From Chloroflexota bacterium (GTDB lineage: Bacteria; Chloroflexota; Dehalococcoidia; JACPPY01), in NCBI GenBank assembly GCA_016190755.1, contig JACPPY010000053.1:10531-74530 (forward strand): a stretch of 64,000 nt of DNA, read 5' to 3'. The notes under the pieces were generated by a model that ran no database searches, was not told the origin of the DNA, and was given only the letters and a program-made list of their open reading frames with translations. Numbering within the stretch: the stretch's first letter is position 1; every line of letters begins with the position of its first letter. Of this stretch, positions 2,340 through 52,142 are shown one piece after another. The position numbers and the translations under genes are program-made.

Positions 2340-3683
2340 TCAGGCTAGTTTGCCAACCGCCTCGGGCATATTGAAAGAGAAACGGCTACCCTTTCCGACT
2401 TCGCTCTGCACCTTCACCGTACCGCCGTGGGCCTCTACCAATCTCTTCACTATGGTCAGCCCAAGGCCGGAGCCACCAGTTTCCCTGTTCCTGGAGCGAT
2501 CGACACGATAGAAACGTTCGAATACGTGAGGCAGGTACTCCGCGGGGATACCTTCGCCCGTATCACTTACAGCTACCTCCGCATAGCCACCGATCTCCCT
2601 TGTCGAGACAGTTATCACACCACCACGTGGTGTATGTGTGACCGCATTGGCCAGCAGATTGCGTAGCACCTGTCCTATGCGCCGTGAGTCTATGAGGCAC
2701 AAGGGCAACTCGGAGGCCAGGTCCAGGTTCAGGGACAAGCCGCTGTTGTCCAGCCTGGGCTGGATTGCTACAGCCGCTCCCTTGACGCATTCATTGACGT
2801 CCTGCGGTTGAAGGAACAGATCAAGCTTCCCGGCATCGGCCAGTGAAAGCTCCTGCAGGTCGTCCAGGAGTTTCGTCATGGCCACAGCCTCCTCGTGAAG
2901 CGACTGTATAGCTGCGGCATCAGGTTGCGCCACCCCATCCCTGAAGGCTTCCAGGTATCCGCGAATATTGGACAAGGGGGTCCTCAGCTCATGAGCGGCG
3001 TCGCTCACCATGTCGCGCCTCAGCGTCTCCGCGCGCGCCAGGTCGTCGGCCATCAAGTTGAAGGAACGTCCCAGCTCAGCTATCTCATCGTTGCCGCGGA
3101 CTGTCACGCGATGTTTAAAATCCCCCTGCCCCATGCGCCTAGCGGCCGCCGCGATGGCATGGACAGGAGCTGAAATCCTGCGGGACAGGAAGAATGTGAA
3201 CACCATGGCCGCCGCGACCGCCATCAGACCACCCAGCACCAGGAACCGGTTCACCGACGACACCAGGCTTTGTACCGAGTCATCGTTCGCTTCAGGATTA
3301 ACATACACCGTACCAATGACAACGGGGCCCCGCCTCAGCAGCTGGCCAGATGCCGCCCAGCGTGGGTCGTTCTGCTTCCCCAAGAGACTCCGTGAAGAGT
3401 CGGCCACGATCTTGCCGCCACCATCGGCCAGCACAACACGCTGGCCGTAAAGGGTGCTCAGTTGTTCTACGAACGGCTGGATATCACTCCAACCCTGTCT
3501 CTGGACATAGATTTGCGTCAGGACAAACTGCACACGGGCCGAGCGTGTCTCGTTGCTGCTACGTTGGTACTGGTGTATCTCGCTGGTTGCGCTTCTGGCC
3601 ACAAAAACGGAGACGGCACCAATGGCCACGAATATCACTATTGTGAAGGCCAGAAGCAGGCGAAAATGGAGGCTCCGGATCAT
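2340..3683 (-). CDS. sensor histidine kinase (TM-HAMP-HisKA-HATPase_c)
   Basis: 447 aa. Two TM segments, HAMP ([12 protein letters not shown]), H-box [15 protein letters not shown]-box [13 protein letters not shown]-boxes DTGEGI and [11 protein letters not shown]. Confidence 0.85.
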
Positions 3684-4375
3684 TCTCCTCCTCCATCAAA
3701 CTTATAACCCGCTCCGTAGACTGTTTTGATGTACCTGGGGTGTTCGGGATCCGGCTCTATCTTACGACGCAGGTTAAGCACATGCACGTCGACAGTGCGG
3801 TCGAAACCCTCGAAATCGTAGCCAAAGACCTTTTCGATTAGCCTGGCACGGCTGAACACAACCCCGGGCTCTCTGGCCAGAACACCGAGCAGGCGAAACT
3901 CCATAGGCGTCAGCCTAAGAAGCTTACCGTCCAGCGTCGCCTCGTGGGCATCGAAGTTCATCCTGAGCTTCCCGCGCACGACCTCTTTAGGACCGACGTT
4001 CACGGATTCGGTAGTCCGCCGCAGCACTGCGCGCACCCTGGCTGCAAGCTCACGGGGACTGAAGGGCTTGGTGACGTAGTCGTCGGCACCGGTTTCCAGG
4101 CCAAGTAGCTTATCCTGTTCGGTCGTCTTGGCCGTGAGCATGATCACGGGCACGTCGGACTTGGCCCGCAGCGTGCGGCAGACTTGCAGCCCATCCATCC
4201 CCGGGAGCATCAGGTCCAGTACGATCAGGTCCGGGTGGACCTCCCGCGCCAGTCTCACTGCCTCGTTCCCATCATAAGCAGCATATACCTTGTAACCATC
4301 GCGGCTCAGGTACAGCTTTATCAACTCGACAATCTTGACGTCGTCATCAACTATCAGGATTCGCTTGCCGGTCAT
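3680..4375 (-). CDS. OmpR/PhoB-family response regulator
   Basis: 231 aa. Receiver domain ([26 protein letters not shown]) plus a winged-helix C-terminus ([12 protein letters not shown]). Overlaps the kinase gene by 4 nt. Confidence 0.9.
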
Positions 4376-4513
4376 ACACGATCCTCAACGGCTTTCGGTA
4401 AATTATATTACGTCCCAATTGTTTAAAACCTGTTAAGAATGCCTGTGGTCCTCCAGGTAGACAATGGCAGGCCCACCCGCTAGACTTTGGGCCAAAAACC
4501 GAGGAGGACTCCC

Positions 4514-5311
4514 TTGTCGAAGTTCGAGTACATCTTGTACCAGAAAGAACATGGCGTTGCCACTGTTACGCTCAACCGGCCGGACAGAATGAATGCCTTT
4601 ATCCTCCCGATGCTCGATGAACTGCAAGAGGCATTCACCGCGGCAAGCGCGGACAATGAGGTACGGGTGTTGGTAATCACTGGTGCAGGGCGAGGCTTCT
4701 GTTCTGGCGCCGATGTTGCCGCATTGAAGGATACAGACTCCTTCTATCGGCTGCTGACAACCAGGCTGCCAGCCGCCGGTGGAGTTTCCGTATTCTCACT
4801 CCAGCTGCAAAACTTCGAGAAACCCACCATAGCAGCCATGAACGGCCCGGCCGTGGGAGCCGGGTTCTCTCTGGCGCTGGCCTGTGATATTCGTATAGCA
4901 TCCGAAAAGGCCACTTTCGCCCAACTTTTCGCGCTCAGAGGCCTCGCACCGGACTGCGGTTCAAGCTATTGGCTCCCCAGGACCATAGGCCTGGCGGCGG
5001 CCTGCGAAATGGTGTTCACCGGAGAGACCATAAGCGCCCAGCAGGCCAGGGAAATGCACCTTGTCAGCCGGGTCGTGCCGCCAGATGACCTGATGCCAAC
5101 TGTGATGGAGCTATCCCGGAAGATCGTCAGAGCCGCCCCCCTGGCCATAAGGCTGGCGAAGAAGGCCCTTTACCGAGGCGCCGTGTCCGACCTGGGTTCA
5201 GCCGTAGAGTTCGAAGGATACATGCAGGGCATTTGCTTCAACAGCGAGGATTTCCGGGAAGGCTTGAACGCCTTTGCCGAGAAGAGGGCGCCGCAGTTTA
5301 AGGGAAGATAG
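4514..5311 (+). CDS. enoyl-CoA hydratase/isomerase (crotonase) family protein
   Basis: VATVTLNRPDRMNAF .. VLVITGAGRGFCSGADV .. IAAMNGPAVGAGFSLALACD. Start set at TTG 4514, 6 nt after GAGGAGG (4501-4507); the ORF track opens at 4487. Confidence 0.8.
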   Translation: MSKFEYILYQKEHGVATVTLNRPDRMNAFILPMLDELQEAFTAASADNEVRVLVITGAGRGFCSGADVAALKDTDSFYRLLTTRLPAAGGVSVFSLQLQNFEKPTIAAMNGPAVGAGFSLALACDIRIASEKATFAQLFALRGLAPDCGSSYWLPRTIGLAAACEMVFTGETISAQQAREMHLVSRVVPPDDLMPTVMELSRKIVRAAPLAIRLAKKALYRGAVSDLGSAVEFEGYMQGICFNSEDFREGLNAFAEKRAPQFKGR

Positions 5312-5551
5312 GGGCCTTTCCGTTATCCCTGAGCCAACCGCCAGTCCAGATATGGTTTAGAAAAGAATGTTTTTGAAACACCCGAGATGGGAATGAAAAG
5401 GTCCAGGGGAACTCGGCTCTATTACACAGAGGGAGCGCACCTCTATTCATGTGACAACGGAAAGACCCTGCAGGGAAATAGGCCGGGTTTGCCCGGAACA
5501 TGTGGAGAGGAGTAGTATTCAAATTTGGGTCTCGATATGAATGCGTGAAAT

Positions 5552-6697
5552 ATGAACCTGCAAAACAACTCCCTCGGCCTGCGCCTAGCGGCCATAAACT
5601 TCTTGCTGAACTTATCGTTTGAGTCGTCCGGATTGCTTCTACCGCTGTACGCGAACGATATGGGTGCTTCCAAGTTCACTATCGGGCTCATTATCTCGGC
5701 TCACGGCATGTCTTTCTTTATTTCGTCCTTCGTTTTCGGCCGGCAAGCCGACATCCGAGGGAGAACGGTTTTCGTCCGCCTCGGATTGGGTGCTGTGGCC
5801 GTAGCGTACCTTCTCCAATCGGTCGTAAGCAGTCCGGCGATGCTGCTTGCCGCCAGGGCATTTGTCGGGCTAAGCCTGGGCATATGCACTTCCGCCCTGA
5901 CGGCCTACGTCTACGAGTCGGAGGGCCACATCGGCAAGTTCTCTTCATATGGTGCGCTAGGCTGGGTCGCCGGGGCTGTGTGCGCCGGAGTCTTGGGAAC
6001 CTACAGCCTGCTCTTCATGGCGAGCAGCGCCGCCTCAGGAGTCGCCTTCCTGATGGCATTGACCTTGAAGGAAACGGCAGGGAAACACTCAAACGTGGCT
6101 GTACTTCCCTGGAAAATCCTGCGCGAGAACCGGAAGCTGTACCTGGCTTTCTTGCTCAGACAGATAGGTGCGCAGGCGGCGTGGTCCGTCTCGCCACTGT
6201 TCATGGCCAGCATCGGGGCCAGCAAGTCCTGGATCGCCGTAATGAGCGGAATCAACACAGGCGGCCAATTCGTCGCCTTGCGGTTCGCCGACCGGTTCAA
6301 CCCGGTGAGCATGGTGACGGTTGGTCTCCTTGGTTCAGTGGCAGTTTTCGCCGGATACGGTACGGCCACCAATTTCATACAGCTTTTGCCGGTGCAAGTG
6401 CTCCTGGCCATATCATGGTCATGCCTCTTCATCGGGGCCATGACCCTGTTGCTGAGGAAAAACGTCGAGCACGGGACGGCCGCAGGACTGCTTTACTCGA
6501 TGACTCAGCTATCTGCCGGGGTAGGACCCTTCCTCGGCGGGGCCATGGCGCAGGCCTGGGGATTCAACTTACTTATGTATGCCTCCTCGGCGCTCTCCTT
6601 CGTTAGCTTCCTGACATCGCGCGGCCTGGAGAAGCGCACCAGGAGCCAGCCAGCCAGCACAGCCGCCACCACTCCAGGTAACAGGATCAAGGGGTAA
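5552..6697 (+). CDS. MFS transporter
   Basis: 381 aa, about 12 hydrophobic segments, with an MFS-like loop motif FGRQADIRGR after TM2. Confidence 0.7.
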   Translation: MNLQNNSLGLRLAAINFLLNLSFESSGLLLPLYANDMGASKFTIGLIISAHGMSFFISSFVFGRQADIRGRTVFVRLGLGAVAVAYLLQSVVSSPAMLLAARAFVGLSLGICTSALTAYVYESEGHIGKFSSYGALGWVAGAVCAGVLGTYSLLFMASSAASGVAFLMALTLKETAGKHSNVAVLPWKILRENRKLYLAFLLRQIGAQAAWSVSPLFMASIGASKSWIAVMSGINTGGQFVALRFADRFNPVSMVTVGLLGSVAVFAGYGTATNFIQLLPVQVLLAISWSCLFIGAMTLLLRKNVEHGTAAGLLYSMTQLSAGVGPFLGGAMAQAWGFNLLMYASSALSFVSFLTSRGLEKRTRSQPASTAATTPGNRIKG

Positions 6698-23389: not shown

Positions 23390-23482
23390 GGAGGGATCGC
23401 ATAGTGGTCTAGTGCGGCCGCCTGCTAAGCGGTTACCCTGGGTAAACTGGGGTCATGGGTTCGAATCCCATTCCCTCCGCCA
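23390..23482 (+). tRNA. tRNA-Ser (anticodon GCU), CCA encoded
   Basis: Acceptor stem GGAGGGA/TCCCTCC, anticodon stem-loop GCCGC-CTGCTAA-GCGGT, long variable arm (CCCTGGGTAAACTGGGG), T-arm GGGTTCGAATCCC, discriminator G, then CCA. Confidence 0.9.
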
Positions 23483-36281: not shown

Positions 36282-36395
36282 CTAACCCTGCCGCTGCTTG
36301 TGCTTCGGGTTGTCGCATATAACCCGAACCACCCCGTGGCGGCGGATAACTTTACACTTGTTGCACCTGACCTTGACCGAAGCTCTGACTTTCAT
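36282..36395 (-). CDS. rpmJ: 50S ribosomal protein bL36 (below the ORF-track size cutoff)
   Basis: Hand translation of the minus strand gives [37 protein letters not shown], 37 aa with a C-x2-C-x12-C-x4-H zinc motif. Lies between infA and rpsM as expected. Confidence 0.95.
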
Positions 36396-36499: not shown

Positions 36500-36715
36500 C
36501 TATAGCCTGTATGTAATCCGCCCACGGGACAGGTCGTAAATGGATAGTTCAACAAGTACCCTATCACCAGGGAGGATCTTGATGTAGTGCAGCCTCATCT
36601 TGCCAGATATGTGTGCCAATACTGAGTGACCGTTCGGTAGCTCAACACGAAACATCGCGTTGGGCAAGGCCTCTGTAACGGTTCCTTCAACCTCAATGGT
36701 CTCTTTCTTGGGCAT
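36500..36715 (-). CDS. infA: translation initiation factor IF-1
   Basis: 71 aa. [35 protein letters not shown]. Confidence 0.95.
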
Positions 36716-41999: not shown

Positions 42000-42010
42000 C
42001 ACCGGTACAC

Positions 42011-42196
42011 CTACCAACTTGATTTCCTCACACCTGGGATTTTCCCAGTTAATGCCAATTGCCTGAAGCATATGCGGCATATGCCGAACTTCCGTATGTA
42101 ACCACGGGGTCGACCGCACAGACGGCAGCGGCTGTGTTGCTGTACTTTGAACTTGGGAGGTCGTTGAGACTTTACTATGTTAGACTGTTTCGCCAT
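42011..42196 (-). CDS. rpsZ: 30S ribosomal protein uS14, type Z (zinc-binding)
   Basis: 61 aa. [22 protein letters not shown] (CxxC..CxxC). Confidence 0.95.
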
Positions 42197-42214
42197 AAGT
42201 GACTTCCGCCCTTT

Positions 42215-42772
42215 TTACGATGCCTTACTGAATGGCATACCCAGGAGTTCCAGGAGCCGAGCAGCCTCTTCATCATTCCGTGCTGAGGTCGCGATCGTGA
42301 TCTCCAGTCCCCTTATCTTGTCTACTTTGTCGTACTCGATCTCCGGAAATATTATTTGTTCCTTGAGTCCCATGTTGTAATTGCCACGACCGTCAAACGA
42401 GGTACGCGATGTACCCTGGAAGTCGCGTATGCGCGGCAGCACTGCGTTGAATAGTTTGTCCAGGAAGAAGTACATCCGCAGGTCACGCATAGTTACTGCC
42501 AGCCCGATGGGCATGCCCTTCCTGAGCTTGAAGTTGGCTATCGACTTCTTCGACCGCGTCACTACAGGGTGTTGTCCCGTCACTGTAGCAACATCCTGCT
42601 CAGCGGACTCAAGCGCCTTCGGATTCGACGTGGCCTCGCCCAGCCCGATATTGACAACCACCTTTTGCAGGTGAGGTACCTGCATGACGCTCTGGTACTT
42701 GAACTCCTTCATCATCTGAGGTACGACTTCCTTGAGGTACCTCTCCTTTAGCCTTGGCAAATTCTTGGCCAT
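42215..42772 (-). CDS. rplE: 50S ribosomal protein uL5
   Basis: [18 protein letters not shown].. from ATG 42772, 1 nt after the rplX stop. The ORF track opens at TTG 42781. Confidence 0.95.
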
Positions 42773-42773
42773 G

Positions 42774-43085
42774 CTACTCAATCACCTCATTACACGCGCG
42801 GCACACTCTGACCTTCCTGCCGTCTTCCAGCAGGCGCATGCCAACGCGCGCAGGCCTGTTGCATTTATTGCACACGAACATAACATTCGACGCGTGTATA
42901 GGCGCTTCCCTTTCAATGATGCCAGCTTGACGTGCCCCTTTTACGGCACGTGAGTGGCGCTTCACCATGTTCACGCCTTCCACCACTATCTTCTGTGTCT
43001 TCGGATAAGCAAATCGGACTTTGCCCTTCTTACCCTTATCCTTGCCCACCGCCACCAGCACTGTATCACTCTTCCTGATTTTCAT
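42774..43085 (-). CDS. rplX: 50S ribosomal protein uL24
   Basis: 103 aa. [23 protein letters not shown] (KOW motif). Confidence 0.95.
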
Positions 43086-43122
43086 CTAGCAGCCTCTGGC
43101 CTTAACCGACATCATTTGATTC

Positions 43123-43491
43123 TTACAGGACTTCAGGAGCCAGAGAAACTATCTTCATGAAGTTCTTATCTCTTAGTTCTCTGGCCACAGGACCAAATAT
43201 ACGCGTGCCCTTCGGGTTGTTCCTCTCACCCAGGATTACGGCAGCATTGTCGTCGAACCTGATATACGTGCCATCATGCCTCTTATAGGATGAAGCAGTA
43301 CGCACAACTACCGCTCGCACCATGTCACCCTTTTTGACTGATCCTCCGGGAATGGCGCGTTTCACACTGGCCACAACGACGTCGCCCAGCCGAGCGTACC
43401 TTCTTTTTGACCCACCCAACACATTGACGCACATTATTTGCTTGGCACCGGTGTTATCGGCTACCTTGAGTCTCGAGTAGTTCTGAATCAT
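43123..43491 (-). CDS. rplN: 50S ribosomal protein uL14
   Basis: 122 aa. [17 protein letters not shown]. Confidence 0.95.
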
Positions 43492-43826
43492 TTTTCTTCA
43501 CCGATGACGCTCCGCGACTCCTGAGAGGCGCCCTGCTCTATTTCCTCTTTGATCTCGCTTGGTTGGATCTCAGCTAGCTCTGCCCTCGTCACTATCTCGG
43601 CCACGCGCCACCGCTTGTCTTTGGACAGTGGCCGTGTCTCGACGATCTTGACCCGGTCCCCAAGCTTGCACTCCTGCTTCTCGTCGTGAGCTTTAAATCT
43701 CCTGACATTCCTCAAAATCTTGTTGTACAGCGGGTGCCGCTGTACGTTTTCCACCGCGACCACCACGGTCTTCTGCATCTTCGTGCTGGTCACAGTACCG
43801 GTCCTGGTCTTCCTTTTTCCGCTCAC
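43488..43826 (-). CDS. rpsQ: 30S ribosomal protein uS17
   Basis: 112 aa. [40 protein letters not shown], plus an acidic C-terminal tail. Confidence 0.95.
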
Positions 43827-43846
43827 GTTAAATATACCTCGGTCCT

Positions 43847-44059
43847 CTAGCTTGCGGCCTGGGAAGTGTTACCCTGCTCGCGCTCCTTCTTCACGGTCAG
43901 GAGCAACGCGACCTTCCGCCTTGTCTTCATTATTTGCGTGTTGTCCGCCAACTGCTTCGTCGCTGCTCGCAGGCGCAGGTTGAACAGCTCTCGCCGGGCC
44001 CCTTCGATCTCCTTGAGCAGGTCAACGTCACTCATGCCTCTTGCTTGCTCTGCCTTCAA
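43847..44059 (-). CDS. rpmC: 50S ribosomal protein uL29
   Basis: 70 aa. [24 protein letters not shown]. Confidence 0.95.
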
Positions 44060-44061
44060 GT

Positions 44062-44478
44062 CTAGACTCCTGTCATCTTGCCAACAAACTTAGCATCAAT
44101 GGGCAACTTGTCGGATGCCAGGCGCAGGGCCTCTTTGGCCATGTCCTCTTTGATCCCGCCTATCTCGAATAGTATTTTGCCCGGCCTGACCACTGACACC
44201 CACTCTTCAGGCGCGCCTTTACCACCGCCCATGCGCGTTTCAGCGGGTTTCTTAGTTATGGGCTTATCAGGGAAAACCCGAATCCACAGCTTCCCACCGC
44301 GACGGAGGAAGCGCACAATAACGCGGCGAGCCGCCTCGATCTGGCGCGCCGTGAGCCACGTGGCTTCAGTCGCCTGCAGCCCGAACTCTCCAAAGACAAC
44401 CGTGTTGCCCGAATGGGCATCACCCTTCCTTCGGCCTCTATGAACTTTGCGGTACTTCACTCGTTTCGGTTGTAGCAC
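44062..44478 (-). CDS. rplP: 50S ribosomal protein uL16
   Basis: 138 aa. [19 protein letters not shown]. The start lies 41 nt inside the rpsC 3' end. Confidence 0.95.
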
Positions 44479-45118
44479 TGGCCTGCCTCTTCTCGGGGAA
44501 CACTTCTCCCTTGTAAATCCACACCTTCACACCGATCCTGCCCATTACTGTTCGGGCTTCGGCGGTGCCGTAATCGATATCGGCGCGCAAGGTGTGTAAG
44601 GGGACCTGCCCCTGGTGTGATGTCTCTTTCCGTGCAATTTCCGCGCCGCCAAGCCTGCCGGCAATCTTGATCTTCACGCCCTTTGCCGCCGCCTGCATGG
44701 TGCGGAACATCGCCTGTTTCATAGCTCTTCGGTAAGCTACGCGGCGTTCCATCTGCTCAGCCACGTTCTTCGCCACCAATGTGGCGTTCAACTCAGGCCG
44801 CTCGACTTCCCGGATGGTCAATCTCACCTTCTTTTTAGTCGCCGCCTCCAGGGCTGTTCGGAGTTCTTCCACCCGCTGCCCACCACGGCCAATAACGATG
44901 CCAGGTCGAGCAGAGAATATCGTCACCAGAACATCGCTCCCTTGTCTATCAATGACAACACGGGATATACCAGCCTCAGAAGCCTTCTCAGTCACCACCC
45001 GCCGGACTACCATATCCTCGTACAGTCGATCGCCAAAGTTCTTGTCGGCGTACCACTTCGCGTCCCACTCACGAGTTACACCCAGCCTGAAGCCGATAGG
45101 GTTAACCTTCTGGCCCAT
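44438..45118 (-). CDS. rpsC: 30S ribosomal protein uS3
   Basis: 226 aa. [15 protein letters not shown] domain..[10 protein letters not shown]. Confidence 0.95.
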
Positions 45119-45457
45119 TTATGGTTCCTCCCCAGCTACTATTACGTCGATGTGGCACAACCTTCTCAAAATCGGTGCGATGCGTCCCCTAGCCTGAGGG
45201 CGGAACCGCTTAAGAATATGACCTTTGTTACCTTGTATTCGTACTATCTTCAGGTCCGCCACGGACATCTGGTAGTTGTTCTCAGCATTTGCAGCAGCAG
45301 ATTTTATTGTCTTGGCCACCGCTCTGGCCACGGGTGTGCGCATGAACCTCAGCGTGACAAGCGCATCCTCCACCTTTTTCCCCCGGACCAACTCGGCGAT
45401 CATCGCTACCTTCTGCGGTGATACTATTTCATCTTTGCTTACGGCTCTTACTTCCAT
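45119..45457 (-). CDS. rplV: 50S ribosomal protein uL22
   Basis: 112 aa. Abuts rpsC. KTIKSAAANAENN..RFRPQARGRIAPI. Confidence 0.95.
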   Translation of the reverse strand: MEVRAVSKDEIVSPQKVAMIAELVRGKKVEDALVTLRFMRTPVARAVAKTIKSAAANAENNYQMSVADLKIVRIQGNKGHILKRFRPQARGRIAPILRRLCHIDVIVAGEEP

Positions 45458-45477
45458 AGCTGTACCTTGACGCTCTT

Positions 45478-45789
45478 CTATTTGGCTGCTGGCGCTGCAG
45501 GTGCTGCGGGTGCGGCCGCCGCCGCCTGGACCCTGGCCACATGGCCTCGGAACAACCTTGTGGGGGCAAACTCGCCCATCCGGTGTCCCACCATATTCTC
45601 CGTAACGAAGACCGCCACATGCCTCCTGCCGTCATAAACACCTATCGTCATACCGATCATTTGAGGCATCACGACACTGGAGCGAGACCACGTCTTGATC
45701 ACAGTCGTTTGACCGGACCGGCGTGCGGCCTCCACCTTCTCCAGCAACTTTTTTTCTATGAACGGACCTTTCCTAGCAGACCTCGACAT
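45478..45789 (-). CDS. rpsS: 30S ribosomal protein uS19
   Basis: 103 aa. [27 protein letters not shown], plus an Ala/Pro-rich tail. Confidence 0.95.
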
Positions 45790-45805
45790 CTACTTGCACT
45801 CCTGC

Positions 45806-46639
45806 CTATACCTGATTCCGCCGGCGGACGATAAACTTGTCCGACGCTCTACGTCCTCGCCTGGTCTTGTAGCCCAAAGCTGGCTTGCCCCAGGGGGTCT
45901 TCGGCGGCATTCCACGAGGGTTCCTACCTTCACCGCCTCCATGTGGGTGGTCTCTCGGAGTGGTCGCCGCACCACGGACTGCTGGACGGATGCCCTTCAG
46001 CCTTCTGCGCCCGGCCTTACCAAGCTGCACATTCTGGTGATCAATATTGCCCACCTGCCCGATAGTCGCCATGCAGTTTCCACGGAATCGCCTTACCTCG
46101 CCTGATGGCAACCGTATCAAAACATACTTGTCTTCACGTCCCATCACCTGTGCGGCGCCGCCCGCGCTGCGTACGATCTGGGCGCCTTTTCCCGGCTCCA
46201 GTTCCAGGTTATGGACCATGCTGCCGACCGGCATAGACTGCAGAGGCAAGGCATTGCCCACCTTGATTTCGGCATTGGCGCCACTCATAACAGTGTCGCC
46301 CACGTTCAGACCCTGGGGAGCGATGATGTACCTCTTCTCTCCGTCGGCGTAGCTTATCAGGGCTATGCGAGCCGAGCGGTTGGGATCATACTCCAGGGCT
46401 GTTACCTGCCCCGGTATGCCCGCTTTGTCCCGCTTGAAGTCGATGTTTCGCAGCATGCGCTTTACGCCGCCGCCGCGATGGCGGACCGTTATCATTCCCG
46501 AGTTGTTGCGCCCTGCCATCGACTTATGTCGCGTAATAAGCGACTTCTCTGGCTCTTTTTTCTTCGTCAGGCCTTCCAAGGTCAACGAAACCTGATGCCT
46601 CAAGCCCGGCGAAGTTGGCCTATATGTCTTCAACGCCAA
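45806..46639 (-). CDS. rplB: 50S ribosomal protein uL2
   Basis: 277 aa. [30 protein letters not shown] start with AGAGGTG upstream. Confidence 0.95.
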
Positions 46640-46666
46640 GTCAATTCACCTCTGTCTCAGGGGCTG

Positions 46667-46762
46667 CTACTTATGCCTACGTTGCCAACGAGACGCCTTA
46701 AGGAGCTTCCTGTACTTATGTCTGCTCATCTTCTTGCGTCGCTTTTTGATTACCGACCCCAT
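46667..46762 (-). CDS. 31-aa highly basic protein resembling actinobacterial ribosomal protein bS22 (AURKAIP1/COX24-like), below the ORF-track cutoff
   Basis: Hand translation gives [31 protein letters not shown]. It fills an otherwise unexplained 126-nt rplW-rplB gap. The ATG lies 3 nt after the rplW stop, and its stop lies 27 nt before the rplB start. Closely matches my recollection of the M. smegmatis bS22 sequence ([21 protein letters not shown]..). Confidence 0.7.
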   Translation of the reverse strand: [31 protein letters not shown]

Positions 46763-46765
46763 AGG

Positions 46766-47050
46766 TTATATGCCCTCGAAGAATTCAATTTTATTTCCAG
46801 GAACCAGGCTTACGACCGCTTTTTTCAAGGTTGGGGTTATCATGCGCCGGCCGCCAAAACGCTTCATCTTGCCCGGCCGGTTGATCATCTGCACCTTGTC
46901 AACCTTAACATTGAACGCCAGTTCAACGGCTAGCTTCACCTGAGACCTGTTGGCGTTCTCGTCAACCTCGAACACGTACTTACCCTGCTCCTTAAGCGCA
47001 GTGGCTTTCTCTGTAATAAGAGGACGTTTGATAACGTTCCACGTGTTCAT
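46766..47050 (-). CDS. rplW: 50S ribosomal protein uL23
   Basis: 94 aa. VIKRPLITEKA..YVFEVD..ANRSQVKLAVE. Confidence 0.95.
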   Translation of the reverse strand: MNTWNVIKRPLITEKATALKEQGKYVFEVDENANRSQVKLAVELAFNVKVDKVQMINRPGKMKRFGGRRMITPTLKKAVVSLVPGNKIEFFEGI

Positions 47051-47796
47051 TCCGGTTTGCTCCTGGTACTCGCCCTCTTCCTTGGTTTCTTTTCGGCGAC
47101 CGTTGCTTCCTCAACCTGCTTCTTCGATTCCTCTTGTTTCTCGGGTTCTTCCTGCTTCTGAGCCTCCGTTTTCTTGGGCTGCCACAGGGCTTCCGCCTTG
47201 CGTACCGCATCAACCGTCATGAGCACGCTGCGATGGCGCAGCAGATCAAGGACATTTAGTAGCGCAGCAGGGGTCGTTTTAACGCCAGGAATATTCCGCG
47301 CCGCCTGAATGACGACGGGGTCTACCTCCGCCGTGGCAACCAGAACAGTGCCGTTGCTTCCCAGGTTTTCCAGGACATGCGCCAGCTCTTTGGTCTTGCC
47401 ATTCTCCAGGCTCAGGCCCTGCAAAATCTTGAGCTCCCCATCGGCGATCTTGGAAGACAGCGCACAGCGGATAGCAAGACGCCGCATCTTCTTTGGCATG
47501 GCTTGCCGGTAGCTTCTGGGGTGCGGGCCGAAAGCTACGGCTCCACCTTTCAGCGTTGGCGATGTTATATCGCCTCTCCGGGCGCGGCCCGTATGCTTTT
47601 GTTGGTAGAGCTTCTTGCCACTGCCCGAAACGGTGCTGCGCGTCTTCGTGTCATGCATACCCAGACGGCGATTGGCCAACTGTCTTACCATTGCCTGGTG
47701 GACAACGCCCTCTCGCCACCCGACTCCAAACACGTCATCGCTGATTTCGATCTTATCAGCGACTTCTCCCGCTGTGTTATATACAGCGACCTGCAC
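47047..47796 (-). CDS. rplD: 50S ribosomal protein uL4
   Basis: 249 aa. QKHTGRARRGDITSPTLKGGAVAFGP, plus a Lys/Glu-rich C-terminal extension of about 45 aa. Confidence 0.95.
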   Translation of the reverse strand: MQVAVYNTAGEVADKIEISDDVFGVGWREGVVHQAMVRQLANRRLGMHDTKTRSTVSGSGKKLYQQKHTGRARRGDITSPTLKGGAVAFGPHPRSYRQAMPKKMRRLAIRCALSSKIADGELKILQGLSLENGKTKELAHVLENLGSNGTVLVATAEVDPVVIQAARNIPGVKTTPAALLNVLDLLRHRSVLMTVDAVRKAEALWQPKKTEAQKQEEPEKQEESKKQVEEATVAEKKPRKRASTRSKPE

Positions 47797-47801
47797 TTTA
47801 A

Positions 47802-48425
47802 CTACTTCCTTCTTCCAGCCTTATTGATGATGAGCAGTCCGCGCTCCGGTCCTGGCACTGCACCCTTGATGAGCAAGAGGTTACGGGCCGGGTCGGCTTC
47901 CACAATCTCGATATCGCGTACGGTAATCTGTGCGTTGCCCAGGTGGCCAGCCATGCGCTGGCCTTTTAGCACACGCCCAGGCGTAGTAGTGGAACCTATT
48001 GCTCCCGGAGCCCTTTGCCTGTCCGATTGGCCGTGAGTTTTCGGCCCGCCATGGAAATGATATCGCCTTACGCCGCCAGCGAAACCTCGCCCCTTCGATG
48101 TACCGGTGATATCCACTCTTTCACCCTTGGCAAATATGCTCGCGTCAACCTTCTGCCCCACTTCGACTTTCGAGGGATCAGCGACCGTCACCTCGCGCAT
48201 GTACTTCACATTGCCCAACTTGCCCAGGTGTCCGGCTACAGGCTGTTTCAATCGCTTGGCATGGTCGAACCCAATCTGGATCGAGTCATAGCCATCCTTG
48301 GCTACTGTTTTCACCTGCGTTATGGTACATGGCCCAGCTTCAATAGCCGTTACGGCCACGAAGCTGCCGTCAGGTTGAAACACCTGTGTCATGCCCAGTT
48401 TTTTGCCCAGTATCCCGTTAATCAT
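47802..48425 (-). CDS. rplC: 50S ribosomal protein uL3
   Basis: 207 aa. [29 protein letters not shown]. Confidence 0.95.
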
Positions 48426-48730
48426 AGCTTGATATCTATCTGAACCCCGGAGGGCAACTGTAGTTGCGTCAGGGCATCTATCGTCTTGGGAGTCGGTTCC
48501 AGTATATCTATCAATCTCTTGTGCGTGCGAATCTCGAACTGCTCCCGCGAATCCTTATCGATGTTCGTCGACCGGTTGACACAGAACTTCTGGATGTGGG
48601 TCGGTAGAGGCACTGGTCCGACGACTACAGCGCCGGTCCGCTCGGCAGCCTCTACTATCTGCACTCCAGCCTGATCCGCTATTCTGTGATCGAAGCTCTT
48701 TAACTTAATGCGTACTTTTTGCCGTGGCAT
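48422..48730 (-). CDS. rpsJ: 30S ribosomal protein uS10
   Basis: 102 aa. [22 protein letters not shown]. Confidence 0.95.
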
Positions 48731-50905
48731 TTAAGTCCCCTTGGTTCTGGCGCTGATACCCTTAGCCAACTCGGCAGACACTTCTCTATACCGTTCGAAC
48801 TCCATAGTATATGTTGCCCTGCCCTGGCTTAACGACCTGATGGTGGTGGCGTAGCCAAATGTCTCCGCCAGTGGTACTCGAGCGTGAACGACGGTAGACC
48901 CGCCACGCGTTTCGATACCCTCGATCTGCCCTCGTCGGGAGTTCAAGTCTCCGATGATGTCGCCGACCGACTCCTCCGGCGTGACAACCTCTATCGACAT
49001 TATGGGTTCGAGCAGGATAGGATTTGCTCTCTTCAATCCGTTCTTGACTCCAAGAGAGCCAGCCATTTTGAAGGCGATCTCAGAGGAGTCCACCTCATGA
49101 TAGCTGCCGTCATAGACCGTTACTTTTACGTCCACGACAGGGTAGCCGGCCACTGCTCCCGATTCCAGGGCTTCCCTGGCCCCGGCTTCGACAGCAGGTA
49201 TGTACTCCTTCGGGACCGCTCCTGCCTTGACTTTGTCTGCGAACTCGAAACCGCTTCCCGGCTCACCGGGCTCCAGCTCCAGCCAGACATGGCCGTACTG
49301 GCCCCGGCCGCCAAACTGCCGAATAAACCTGCCCTCAGACTTAACGGGCGCAGTTATCGTTTCCCTATAGGCCACCTGCGGCCTGCCGACTTTGGCACCA
49401 ACCTTGAATTCGCGCAGCATGCGCTCGATAAGCACATCCAGGTGCAATTCGCCCATGCCTGACACAAGTGTCTCGCCCGTTTCAGGGTCGAAGTGGACCT
49501 TAAATGTCGGGTCTTCATCGGCCAGCTTGGACAGTGCCTCGCCCAGCTTATCCTGGTCGACCTTGGTCTTGGGTTCGACTGCGACTGATATCACCGGCTC
49601 CGGGAAACGTATGGCTTCCAGAACTACCGGCGCAGATGCGTCGCACAGCGTATCTCCGGTGAAAGTATTCTTCAAGCCGACCGTAGCCGCTATGGCTCCG
49701 GTGTCGACTTCCGCTATCTCTTCACGCCGGTTGGCATGCATCAGGAACAGCCGCCCGATGCGCTCTTTTCTTTCCCTGGTGGTATTTAGCACCTGGTCTC
49801 CAACCTTCATCTTTCCCGAGTACACCCTGAAGTACACCAGGCGTCCCATGAATGGGTCGGAGACGACCTTGAACGCGAGTGCGCTGAACGGGGCGTCGTC
49901 CCTGGCCTCGCGCAGGACACGCTCTCCGGACTTAGGGTTTATGGCCGAAATCGGGAGCATATCCCCCGGCGAGGGTAGATAGTCCACCACGGCGTCCAAC
50001 AAGAGTTGTATACCCTTGTTCCTGAAAGCACTGCCGCACAGGACAGGCACAAGGTGCCGGGCCAGCGTAGCCCGGCGTATTGCCGCTCGGATATCAGAAA
50101 CCGAAAGCTCCTTGCCATCCAGGTACGCTTCCATCAGACGGTCGTCACCTTCTGCCAGGAGTTCGATCATGTTGTGCCGCGCCTCTGCTACTCTGGCCTT
50201 GTCCGACTCAGGCACGGGGCCGATGACAGGCGCATCCTCGGCGGAATCGGTGAACGTCCACACCTTTTCATCTATAAGGTCTATGACACCTCGGAAGTCG
50301 CTTTCGCTTCCCAAAGGCAGTTGTATCGCCAGCGGCTTTGCCTGCAGGCGCTCCTTGATAGTCGCGATAGAGTGCTCAAAATCAGCGCCCACGCGGTCCA
50401 TCTTATTTATGAAACAAATCCGTGGAACACTGTATTTATCGGCCTGTCGCCACACCGTTTCTGATTGTGCCTCAACTCCGGATACGCCGTCGAAAACGAC
50501 AACTCCTCCATCGAGCACTCTCAGGCTTCGCTCCACTTCGGCAGTGAAGTCCACGTGGCCGGGAGTATCGATAATATTGATACGGTGCCCGTTCCAGTAG
50601 CAGGTGGTGGCGGCCGCCGTAATGGTAATGCCGCGCTCACGTTCCTGGTCCATCCAGTCCATGACCGCGGTACCATCATGTACCTCGCCTATCTTGTAGG
50701 TGCGGCCGGTATAATACAGGATCCGCTCGGTGGTCGTCGTCTTGCCTGCATCGATATGGGCAATAATGCCAATGTTCCTGACCAACTCCAGCGGGAAAGC
50801 CCGCTCTGCGGCCTTATCGGTTTTAGCCCCGACCTGGGGATCACCCTGGTCAGGGTTGTGCGTTGTATCCACGTTAGTTCCGACTGTCAATGTATTCTTT
50901 ACCAT
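48731..50905 (-). CDS. fusA: elongation factor G
   Basis: 724 aa. [35 protein letters not shown]. The stop abuts the rpsJ start. Carries about 30 extra N-terminal residues if ATG 50905 is used. Confidence 0.95.
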
Positions 50906-51369
50906 CTAAAATGAACGAAGGCCTTGTTCGCATCGGCCATCTTATGAGTATCTTCGCGCTTCTTGATAGCGGCGCCCTGGTTCTGGAAAGCATCCATCAG
51001 CTCAGCGGCCAGCTTCTCTGCCGCCGACTTTCCTCCCCTGGCTCGCGCTGCTGCCAGGACCCACCTGGTAGCGAGTGCCGCCCCTCTCTCAGGACGCACC
51101 TCAACAGGTACCTGGTACGTTGCGCCACCGACGCGGCGTGGTTTTACTTCCACGAGTGGCGTCACATTCTTCATCGCCTGCAGAAAGACCTCTTGCGGGT
51201 CCTTCTTGGCACGATCAGCCACTATGTCCATGGCCCCATATACGACCTTATATGCCGTCGCCTTCTGTCCGCGCAACATAACACGGTTGATGAACTTTGC
51301 GATCACCGGGTTGCCGAACCTGGCATCGGCAGCTACTGGCACCCTCTCGATTTTCCCGCGCCTTGGCAT
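50899..51369 (-). CDS. rpsG: 30S ribosomal protein uS7
   Basis: 156 aa. [25 protein letters not shown]. Confidence 0.95.
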
Positions 51370-51388
51370 AACTCTTCCTGTAATTTAT

Positions 51389-51823
51389 TTATGCTTCTTG
51401 TTGACCGGCCTTGGGCCGTTTCGCACCGTACTTGCTGCGGCCCTGCTTGCGGTTGACTACGCCACCCGCATCCAGCGCGCCGCGAATAATATGGTAGCGC
51501 ACACCCGGCAAGTCCTTAACCCTGCCACCACGTATGAGCACCACTGAGTGCTCCTGAAGGTTGTGCCCTTCTCCAGGGATGTACGCCGTTACCTCAACGC
51601 CATTGGTCAGCCTCACCCTTGCGATCTTTCGCAGCGCCGAGTTCGGCTTCTTGGGGGTCATCGTCTTGACCTGGACACAGACGCCCCTCTTCTGCGGCGA
51701 GCCCTCAGGCACTCGCTTCGTCTCATTCCTCATGGCGTTGTACGTGATGCGCAGGGCTGGCGCCTTCGTCTTCTTGCCGATTTTGCTCCTACCCTTGCGC
51801 ACCAACTGATTTATGGTCGGCAT
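51389..51823 (-). CDS. rpsL: 30S ribosomal protein uS12
   Basis: 144 aa. [35 protein letters not shown]. Confidence 0.95.
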
Positions 51824-52142
51824 ATATATCTCCGCTACTCACTAGGCCATTATCAGGCAATCAAAAAGCCACCTAGTTACCAGCCGAACCTTTGCCTTTG
51901 CAGGCTCGCTTCGGCGTGAACCAGCTGGCCTTGGCGAGGCTCGCGCGCCACTGAATCTGAATTTGGCGCCGAGAAGCTAGTCTAACACACTCGACAATTG
52001 AGTGTCAACTATATCATCATTGGCCAGCACCCTCTCCTGATTGTTTCGTAGTCGCGTTACCTCCTCAATGCCATAGTGGCCAAGCCACGAGAAAATTATA
52101 CAACCATACAATACCCTCCTTGCAACACCAGCAGCCAGCACA

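Follow-up and report, generated by a model that had tools for sequence, protein, structure and literature searches.

A wide gap between rplW and rplB raises the question of whether the S10 operon of this genome holds an additional gene and, if so, whether its product belongs to the ribosome. In the window, that is, the whole 64-kb stretch of DNA analysed here (G+C content of 56%), the entire fusA-S10-spc-alpha ribosomal set is encoded on the minus strand, with fusA preceding the S10 cluster and the spc cluster following it. As read from the ORF list and from Pfam labels on syntenic loci, the S10 cluster (43488-48730, minus strand) has the order rpsJ-rplC-rplD-rplW-bS22-rplB-rpsS-rplV-rpsC-rplP-rpmC-rpsQ. 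The rplW-rplB gap measures 126 nt; at all other junctions from fusA to rplX in the ORF list, neighbouring genes either overlap, by 4 or 41 nt, or are 0-37 nt apart. Both the size of this gap and the tight packing of the neighbouring genes had been pointed out in a first-pass annotation of the locus, and both observations hold.

An open reading frame that fills the rplW-rplB gap

The gap is filled by an open reading frame (ORF) of 31 codons plus a TAG stop, which starts with ATG (46667-46762, minus strand) and is supported by the ORF list and by the HMM and PDB matches described below. The first-pass annotation had proposed exactly this ORF and peptide, with coordinates and distances that agree with the ORF list, and had left unstated that the gene, like the whole cluster, lies on the minus strand. 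Its ATG is located 3 nt past the stop codon of the upstream gene rplW (46766-47050, minus strand), which encodes uL23 and whose homologs are annotated as 50S ribosomal protein L23 (PF00276). Its TAG lies 27 nt ahead of the TTG start codon of the downstream gene rplB (45806-46639, minus strand), which encodes uL2; in related loci, uL2 is found at the same place with 66-76% identity. The homologs of uL23 come from MAGs annotated as Dehalococcoidia, Chloroflexi or Chloroflexota; apart from the self match, the best is 80% identical and the next are approximately 64-66%. The window accordingly belongs to the genome of an uncultured, Dehalococcoidia-like member of the Chloroflexota.

Both the small ORF and rplB are preceded by putative ribosome-binding sites. 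Specifically, the Shine-Dalgarno (SD)-like motif GAGGG (46773-46777, minus strand), which is made by the last Glu-Gly codons of rplW, is positioned 10 nt 5' of the ATG and may serve the small ORF, with GAGGG, GAAGG, AGGGGA, GGGAGG or AGAGGTG at this position in relatives. The SD-like motif GAGGTG (46647-46652, minus strand), 7 nt 5' of the TTG, lies within the 27-nt spacer and may serve rplB. In a simple consensus scan, the rplW-rplB interval contains no terminator-like or promoter-like site on the coding strand. The same scan of positions 42000-52000 found no terminator-like site on the minus strand and a single promoter-like site, at 45330 inside rplV. The ORF is thus placed as a member of the S10 operon would be, on the same strand as its neighbours, from which it is separated by just 3 and 27 nt, and with neither a terminator-like nor a promoter-like site in the interval. 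An Rfam search of the 64-kb window found no ribosomal leader and no rRNA; the sole RNA gene found there by Rfam/ARAGORN is a tRNA-Ser(GCT) (23390-23482, plus strand).

Membership of the bS22 family

The encoded peptide is a member of the bS22 family. It matches NF047430, the NCBIfam equivalog for "30S ribosomal protein bS22", with 57.6 bits against a cutoff of 34 (E = 9.3e-16), and the alignment is full-length, with residues 1-31 on profile positions 1-31 of 31. Pfam PF08213 (COX24_C/AURKAIP1, DUF1713) is matched with 43.1 bits against a gathering score of 23 (E = 3.9e-11). Additionally, a PDB sequence search gave 21 matches, the best of which are bS22 chains from cryo-EM structures of C. acnes and Mycobacterium ribosomes, aligned over residues 1-30 with E-values from 1.8e-6 to 1.7e-5 (8crx_X, 1.8e-6; 9e16_x, 2.7e-6; 32nj_x/5o61, 2.8e-6; 6dzi_j, 1.7e-5). 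Across 29 residues, the peptide shares 72% identity with M. smegmatis bS22. The likeness to mycobacterial bS22 noted in the first-pass annotation is therefore borne out by actual searches, and the mycobacterial sequence given there agrees with the PDB alignment. Only one bS22 copy is present in the 64-kb window; a degenerate pattern that joins the bS22 N-terminus to the uL2 N-terminus matches the window once and none of 100 shuffles.

The peptide has 31 residues, 15 of which are Lys or Arg (48%) and a further two His, with a pI of 12.0 and a mass of 3.98 kDa. An AlphaFold2 single-sequence model predicts helices at residues 4-9 and 14-30 with a break in between (mean pLDDT of 80), a prediction compatible with the bent helix that bS22 adopts in ribosome structures (PMC10618245). 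A Foldseek search of this 31-residue model against the PDB returned no matches, as the peptide is too short.

The closest known relatives are the actinobacterial bS22 proteins (M. smegmatis MSMEG_0945, M. tuberculosis and C. acnes; PDB 5O61 and 8CRX, among others), which fall into the same NCBIfam equivalog and Pfam domain. They are approximately 68-72% identical to the window protein, share its first 10 residues and are similar in size and charge. Twelve positions are invariant between Chloroflexota and actinobacterial bS22, namely M1, G2, S3, V4, K6, R8, M12, K19, L21, R25, Q27 and R28. The two groups differ at the C-terminus, where actinobacterial bS22, with 33 residues, carries a KLGK sequence that is absent from the window protein, and at position 26, which is Trp in Chloroflexota bS22 yet Val or Ile in actinobacterial bS22.

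The bS22 proteins of Bacteroidota (F. johnsoniae Fjoh_1533 and P. gingivalis) and Borrelia (bb0822) are likewise tiny, very basic and often unannotated, and in the solved structures they occupy the same ribosomal site with the same bent-helix shape as actinobacterial bS22. Their sequences are much more divergent (C. acnes and F. johnsoniae bS22 are 37% identical), and none of them is among the 21 PDB sequence matches. The Borrelia gene starts with GUG, and some Chloroflexota bS22 genes start with TTG or GTG. Borrelia bS22 escaped detection by mass spectrometry (PMC10618245), in keeping with the very small fragments that trypsin would make of a peptide such as that of the window. The literature examined on Bacteroidota and Borrelia bS22 contains no description of these genes within an S10 operon.

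The PF08213 domain is also shared with mitochondrial mS38/AURKAIP1/Cox24 and with cytosolic eL41. mS38 and eL41 fill the equivalent small-subunit pocket (PMC10618245, PMC10085706). mS38 proteins have 110-200 residues with long N-terminal parts, whereas the window protein is the bare 31-residue domain, with neither the size nor the N-terminal region of mS38/AURKAIP1. In line with this difference, the mS38 chains match through their C-terminal ~27 residues only, and more weakly (E of approximately 1e-3, over residues 3-29).

Resemblance in sequence could in principle conceal a different activity, in that the peptide might act mainly off the ribosome, for instance as an RNA chaperone or, in free form, as a cationic or antimicrobial peptide. 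The free bS22 of C. acnes was indeed assayed for antimicrobial action on account of its likeness to cationic helical peptides (PMC10085706), and short sequences rich in Lys and Arg may match each other through composition alone. The match found here, however, is positional, spans the whole length, reaches a curated equivalog and includes the 12 positions invariant with actinobacterial bS22. The gene is moreover embedded in the S10 operon, flanked on both sides by core ribosomal protein genes, and the peptide has no signal or export feature. We consider an off-ribosome activity very unlikely, and favour the reading that the peptide is a ribosomal bS22.

Conservation of the insertion in one clade and bS22 genes elsewhere

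The rplW-bS22-rplB arrangement is found in 17 other contigs, with 12 distinct peptides and with ATG, TTG or GTG starts. The ORF is intact in all 18 contigs, its frame is preserved and its changes are mostly synonymous. The further loci retrieved through the closest relatives of the window's uL23 (L092-L098) all carry an intact ORF in this slot, so that the conservation of position and frame that the first-pass annotation had suggested checking in the rplW-rplB spacers of relatives was found in every one examined. The exact 31-residue peptide is encoded in the same slot on two NCBI Chloroflexi MAG contigs, L001 and L002, in which uL23 is only ~61% identical to that of the window. The window ORF differs from those of L001 and L002 at 20 and 21 of 93 nt, respectively, with 0 amino-acid changes in either case. 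Over all pairs, pN/pS ranges from 0.02 to 0.46. These substitution patterns indicate that the bS22 ORF is under strong purifying selection.

Such conservation bears on two other explanations. An ORF that arose by chance, or the decaying remnant of a gene within a spacer that no longer codes for protein, would be in keeping with a length under the usual ORF filters and with the failure of gene callers to report the gene at six of nine places examined. Against this stand the match to a curated HMM (E of 9e-16), the intact frame with mostly synonymous changes in all 18 contigs, and the long rplW-rplB spacers of non-carriers, which were checked for divergent bS22-like ORFs and contain none comparable. 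The HMM match and the conservation across contigs effectively refute this explanation. Alternatively, the ORF might be a regulatory leader or upstream ORF, whose translation, rather than its peptide, tunes rplB expression. The ORF does lie directly 5' of rplB, whose TTG start is weak, and the bS22-rplB spacing is short, roughly 9-40 nt in relatives. Leader peptides, however, are not conserved in amino-acid sequence across genomes whose neighbouring proteins are ~60% identical, and here nearly all changes are synonymous, including every one of the 20-21 nt differences from L001 and L002. In addition, most related genomes have a 3-50 nt rplW-rplB junction with no such ORF and still express rplB, and the simple consensus scan found no terminator- or antiterminator-like hairpin. 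A leader function is thus highly improbable. Taken together, the family match, the conservation and the position argue that the ORF is very probably a genuine bS22 gene, inserted in this Dehalococcoidia sublineage into the S10 operon between rplW and rplB.

Two scans addressed how common the insertion is. A degenerate-DNA scan of 185,579 species genomes, which was ATG-anchored and strict and used PT[ST]PxxR as its uL2 anchor (PTSPARR in the uL2 of L001), identified at least three true cases, namely L003 ("Dehalococcoides sp. JdFR-54"), L006 (Chloroflexota MAG211) and L008, the last being the contig of L001. This number is a lower bound because the ATG anchor and the strictness of the pattern miss TTG and GTG starts and GSV[IV]KW variants. 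Six actinobacterial matches in the genome scan were rejected as chance anchor matches, bS22 not being beside S10 genes there. In a metagenome scan with uL23 alignment, 80 loci were recovered, 77 of them with both uL23 and uL2, and bS22 occupies the rplW-rplB spacer in six of these 77 (L012, L013, L015, L027, L051 and L062); the remaining loci have rplW-rplB junctions of mostly 3-50 nt. At least seven of the 17 other S10-embedded genes have non-ATG starts (TTG in L012, L013, L027, L051 and L062; GTG in L093 and L094), which is a further reason for the under-calling of bS22 and for the undercount of the ATG-anchored scan.

In a neighbour-joining tree of Dehalococcoidia-like Chloroflexota, built from uL23 and the first 170 residues of uL2, nine carriers of the insertion form one clade. 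The tenth, L003, adjoins this clade, paired with the non-carrier L023, so that either bS22 was lost or the tree is imprecise at this point. The tree fits a single gain in a Dehalococcoidia sublineage, with possible loss or tree noise.

Outside this clade, bS22 genes have other positions. All six actinobacterial loci fetched carry bS22 outside the S10 cluster. In contrast to the S10-embedded window gene, the actinobacterial gene stands alone in a proC - HTH_17 - bS22 arrangement, as tested in Corynebacterium, where the order is proC - HTH_17 - bS22 - HAD - hemA (L005). Further bS22 genes were obtained with a tandem-doubled peptide query, which retrieved longer, mis-called PF08213 proteins at marginal E-values and no exact 31-mers. 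Many of them have an "RWQRR" signature and are mostly mis-called with 5' extensions. We refer to them as W-type bS22, as those at L099-L103 have the same Trp26 signature as the window protein, to which they are 70-80% identical. The W-type genes examined at L099, L100/L101, L102 and L103, all from other metagenomic lineages, stand alone in four unrelated, non-ribosomal neighbourhoods (thiolase/OB-fold; acyl-CoA dehydrogenase/PLD; glyoxalase/ispE-ksgA; and HIT, respectively). The acyl-CoA dehydrogenase next to the L100 gene has its closest named homolog (87%) in a protein labelled Chloroflexi, a hint that other Chloroflexota-like lineages may keep bS22 as a stand-alone gene. If they do, the location inside the S10 operon would be derived, the gene having been relocated there.

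At L102, the W-type bS22 gene (4001-4153, plus strand) is convergent to ispE-ksgA (4191-5812, minus strand), which may be a coincidence. KsgA (RrnaAD) dimethylates A1518 and A1519 in h45 of 16S rRNA, a helix that helps to form the bS22 pocket. The gene order at this locus, metG-tatD-DPBB-ksgA-ispE, is similar to that of actinobacteria.

Annotation, probable ribosomal role and other features of the cluster

The first-pass annotation had called the gene hidden and expected gene callers to miss it often. In the gene-call collection, bS22 is indeed uncalled at six of the nine places examined (L092-L097) and called at the others (L001, L002 and L098). In the JGI contig L094, a spurious antisense call of 48 aa (3319-3465, minus strand) even covers the uncalled gene. 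The gene is nevertheless not wholly hidden, as near-identical proteins from Chloroflexota and Dehalococcoidia MAGs are already present in GenBank as "aurora kinase A-interacting protein" or "AURKAIP1/COX24 domain-containing protein". The former label is a domain-name transfer, not a functional description. Since the window protein passes the NF047430 equivalog, current NCBI annotation would be expected to name it bS22. The adjoining uL2 calls are shortened, to 215 aa in L095 and L096 and to 259 aa in L094, whose protein cluster has members of 258-259 aa, apparently because gene callers miss the TTG start. In practical terms, many public records miss bS22 or name it after a human kinase-interacting protein, and often shorten the TTG-start rplB beside it.

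In the literature searched, bS22 is described for Actinobacteria, Bacteroidota and Borrelia, and nothing relevant was found on bS22 together with Chloroflexi, the S10 operon or Dehalococcoidia; coverage of this search is incomplete, and absence from it is not proof. The family is known; its occurrence in this phylum appears to be new, as does the insertion of the gene, in one clade, into an operon as highly conserved as S10. Publications on recent ribosome structures make the case that bS22 often escapes annotation and could be universal (PMC10618245, PMC10085706).

In the ribosome structures solved for actinobacteria, Bacteroidota and Borrelia, bS22 is a very basic protein of approximately 30 residues. 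It sits between h27, h44 and h45 of 16S rRNA near the decoding centre and contacts H67-H70 of 23S rRNA, thereby forming an extra inter-subunit bridge (PMC10085706, PMC7797042, PMC12123416, PMC10618245). Deletion of bS22 makes M. smegmatis more sensitive to aminoglycosides, and Lys16 of the M. smegmatis protein contacts the aminoglycoside pocket in h44 (PMC10081302). Lys16 is present in the window protein, with R16 or Q16 in some members of the clade.

From the position of the gene, we propose how bS22 may reach the ribosome in this sublineage. As no terminator- or promoter-like site separates rplW from rplB, bS22 most probably shares a transcript with the core ribosomal protein genes. Translation would start from its own SD-like site right after termination of rplW, or be coupled to that termination, which would keep the output of bS22 in step with the other ribosomal proteins. 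The protein would then take up the canonical bS22 site of the 30S subunit. The first-pass annotation had regarded embedding in the S10 operon as strong genomic evidence for a true ribosomal component; the position does support a ribosomal role, but it is not proof of one.

The present data extend the bS22 family, on sequence evidence, to a fourth phylum. At the level of operons, the S10 embedding is the clearest argument to date for regarding bS22 as a bona fide ribosomal protein that is produced with the core set. As a rare change to a gene order that ranks among the most conserved in bacteria, the insertion could also serve as a clade synapomorphy. We also put forward, tentatively, a broader possibility, namely that bS22 is a widespread small-subunit component beyond the three phyla with structures, that its W-type subfamily spans Chloroflexota and lineages close to them, and that in one Dehalococcoidia clade bS22 was captured by the S10 operon, which is nearly invariant otherwise. 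If so, the capture would point to selection for stoichiometric, constitutive co-expression and would make bS22 an obligatory core ribosomal protein in that clade. It would also lend independent genomic support to the idea that bS22, mS38 and eL41 form one ancient "uS22" family, rather than convergent add-ons.

Several other features of the ribosomal genes were observed in the window. uL4 (47047-47796, minus strand) has a Lys/Glu-rich C-terminal extension of ~45 residues (KKTEAQKQEEPEKQEESKKQVEEATVAEKKPRKRASTRSKPE) and comprises 249 aa, compared with 213-232 aa in relatives. uS19 (45478-45789, minus strand) has an Ala/Pro-rich C-terminal tail and 103 aa, compared with 92-99 aa in relatives. EF-G, encoded by fusA (48731-50905, minus strand), shows approximately 30 extra N-terminal residues before the G1 motif; the extension is either real or due to the ORF rule having picked a start too far upstream. 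The genes rpsC and rplP overlap by 41 nt (44438-44478, minus strand), rplP starting with GTG; the occurrence of the same overlap in L095, L096 and L098 speaks for a real, conserved feature and against an artefact of start-codon choice. Finally, a Cys-rich ORF of 37 aa (36282-36395, minus strand), which at <60 aa is invisible to a size-filtered ORF track, lies just 3' of an ORF of 71 aa (36500-36715); judged by appearance, the former is a candidate zinc-type bL36 gene (rpmJ) and the latter a candidate infA.
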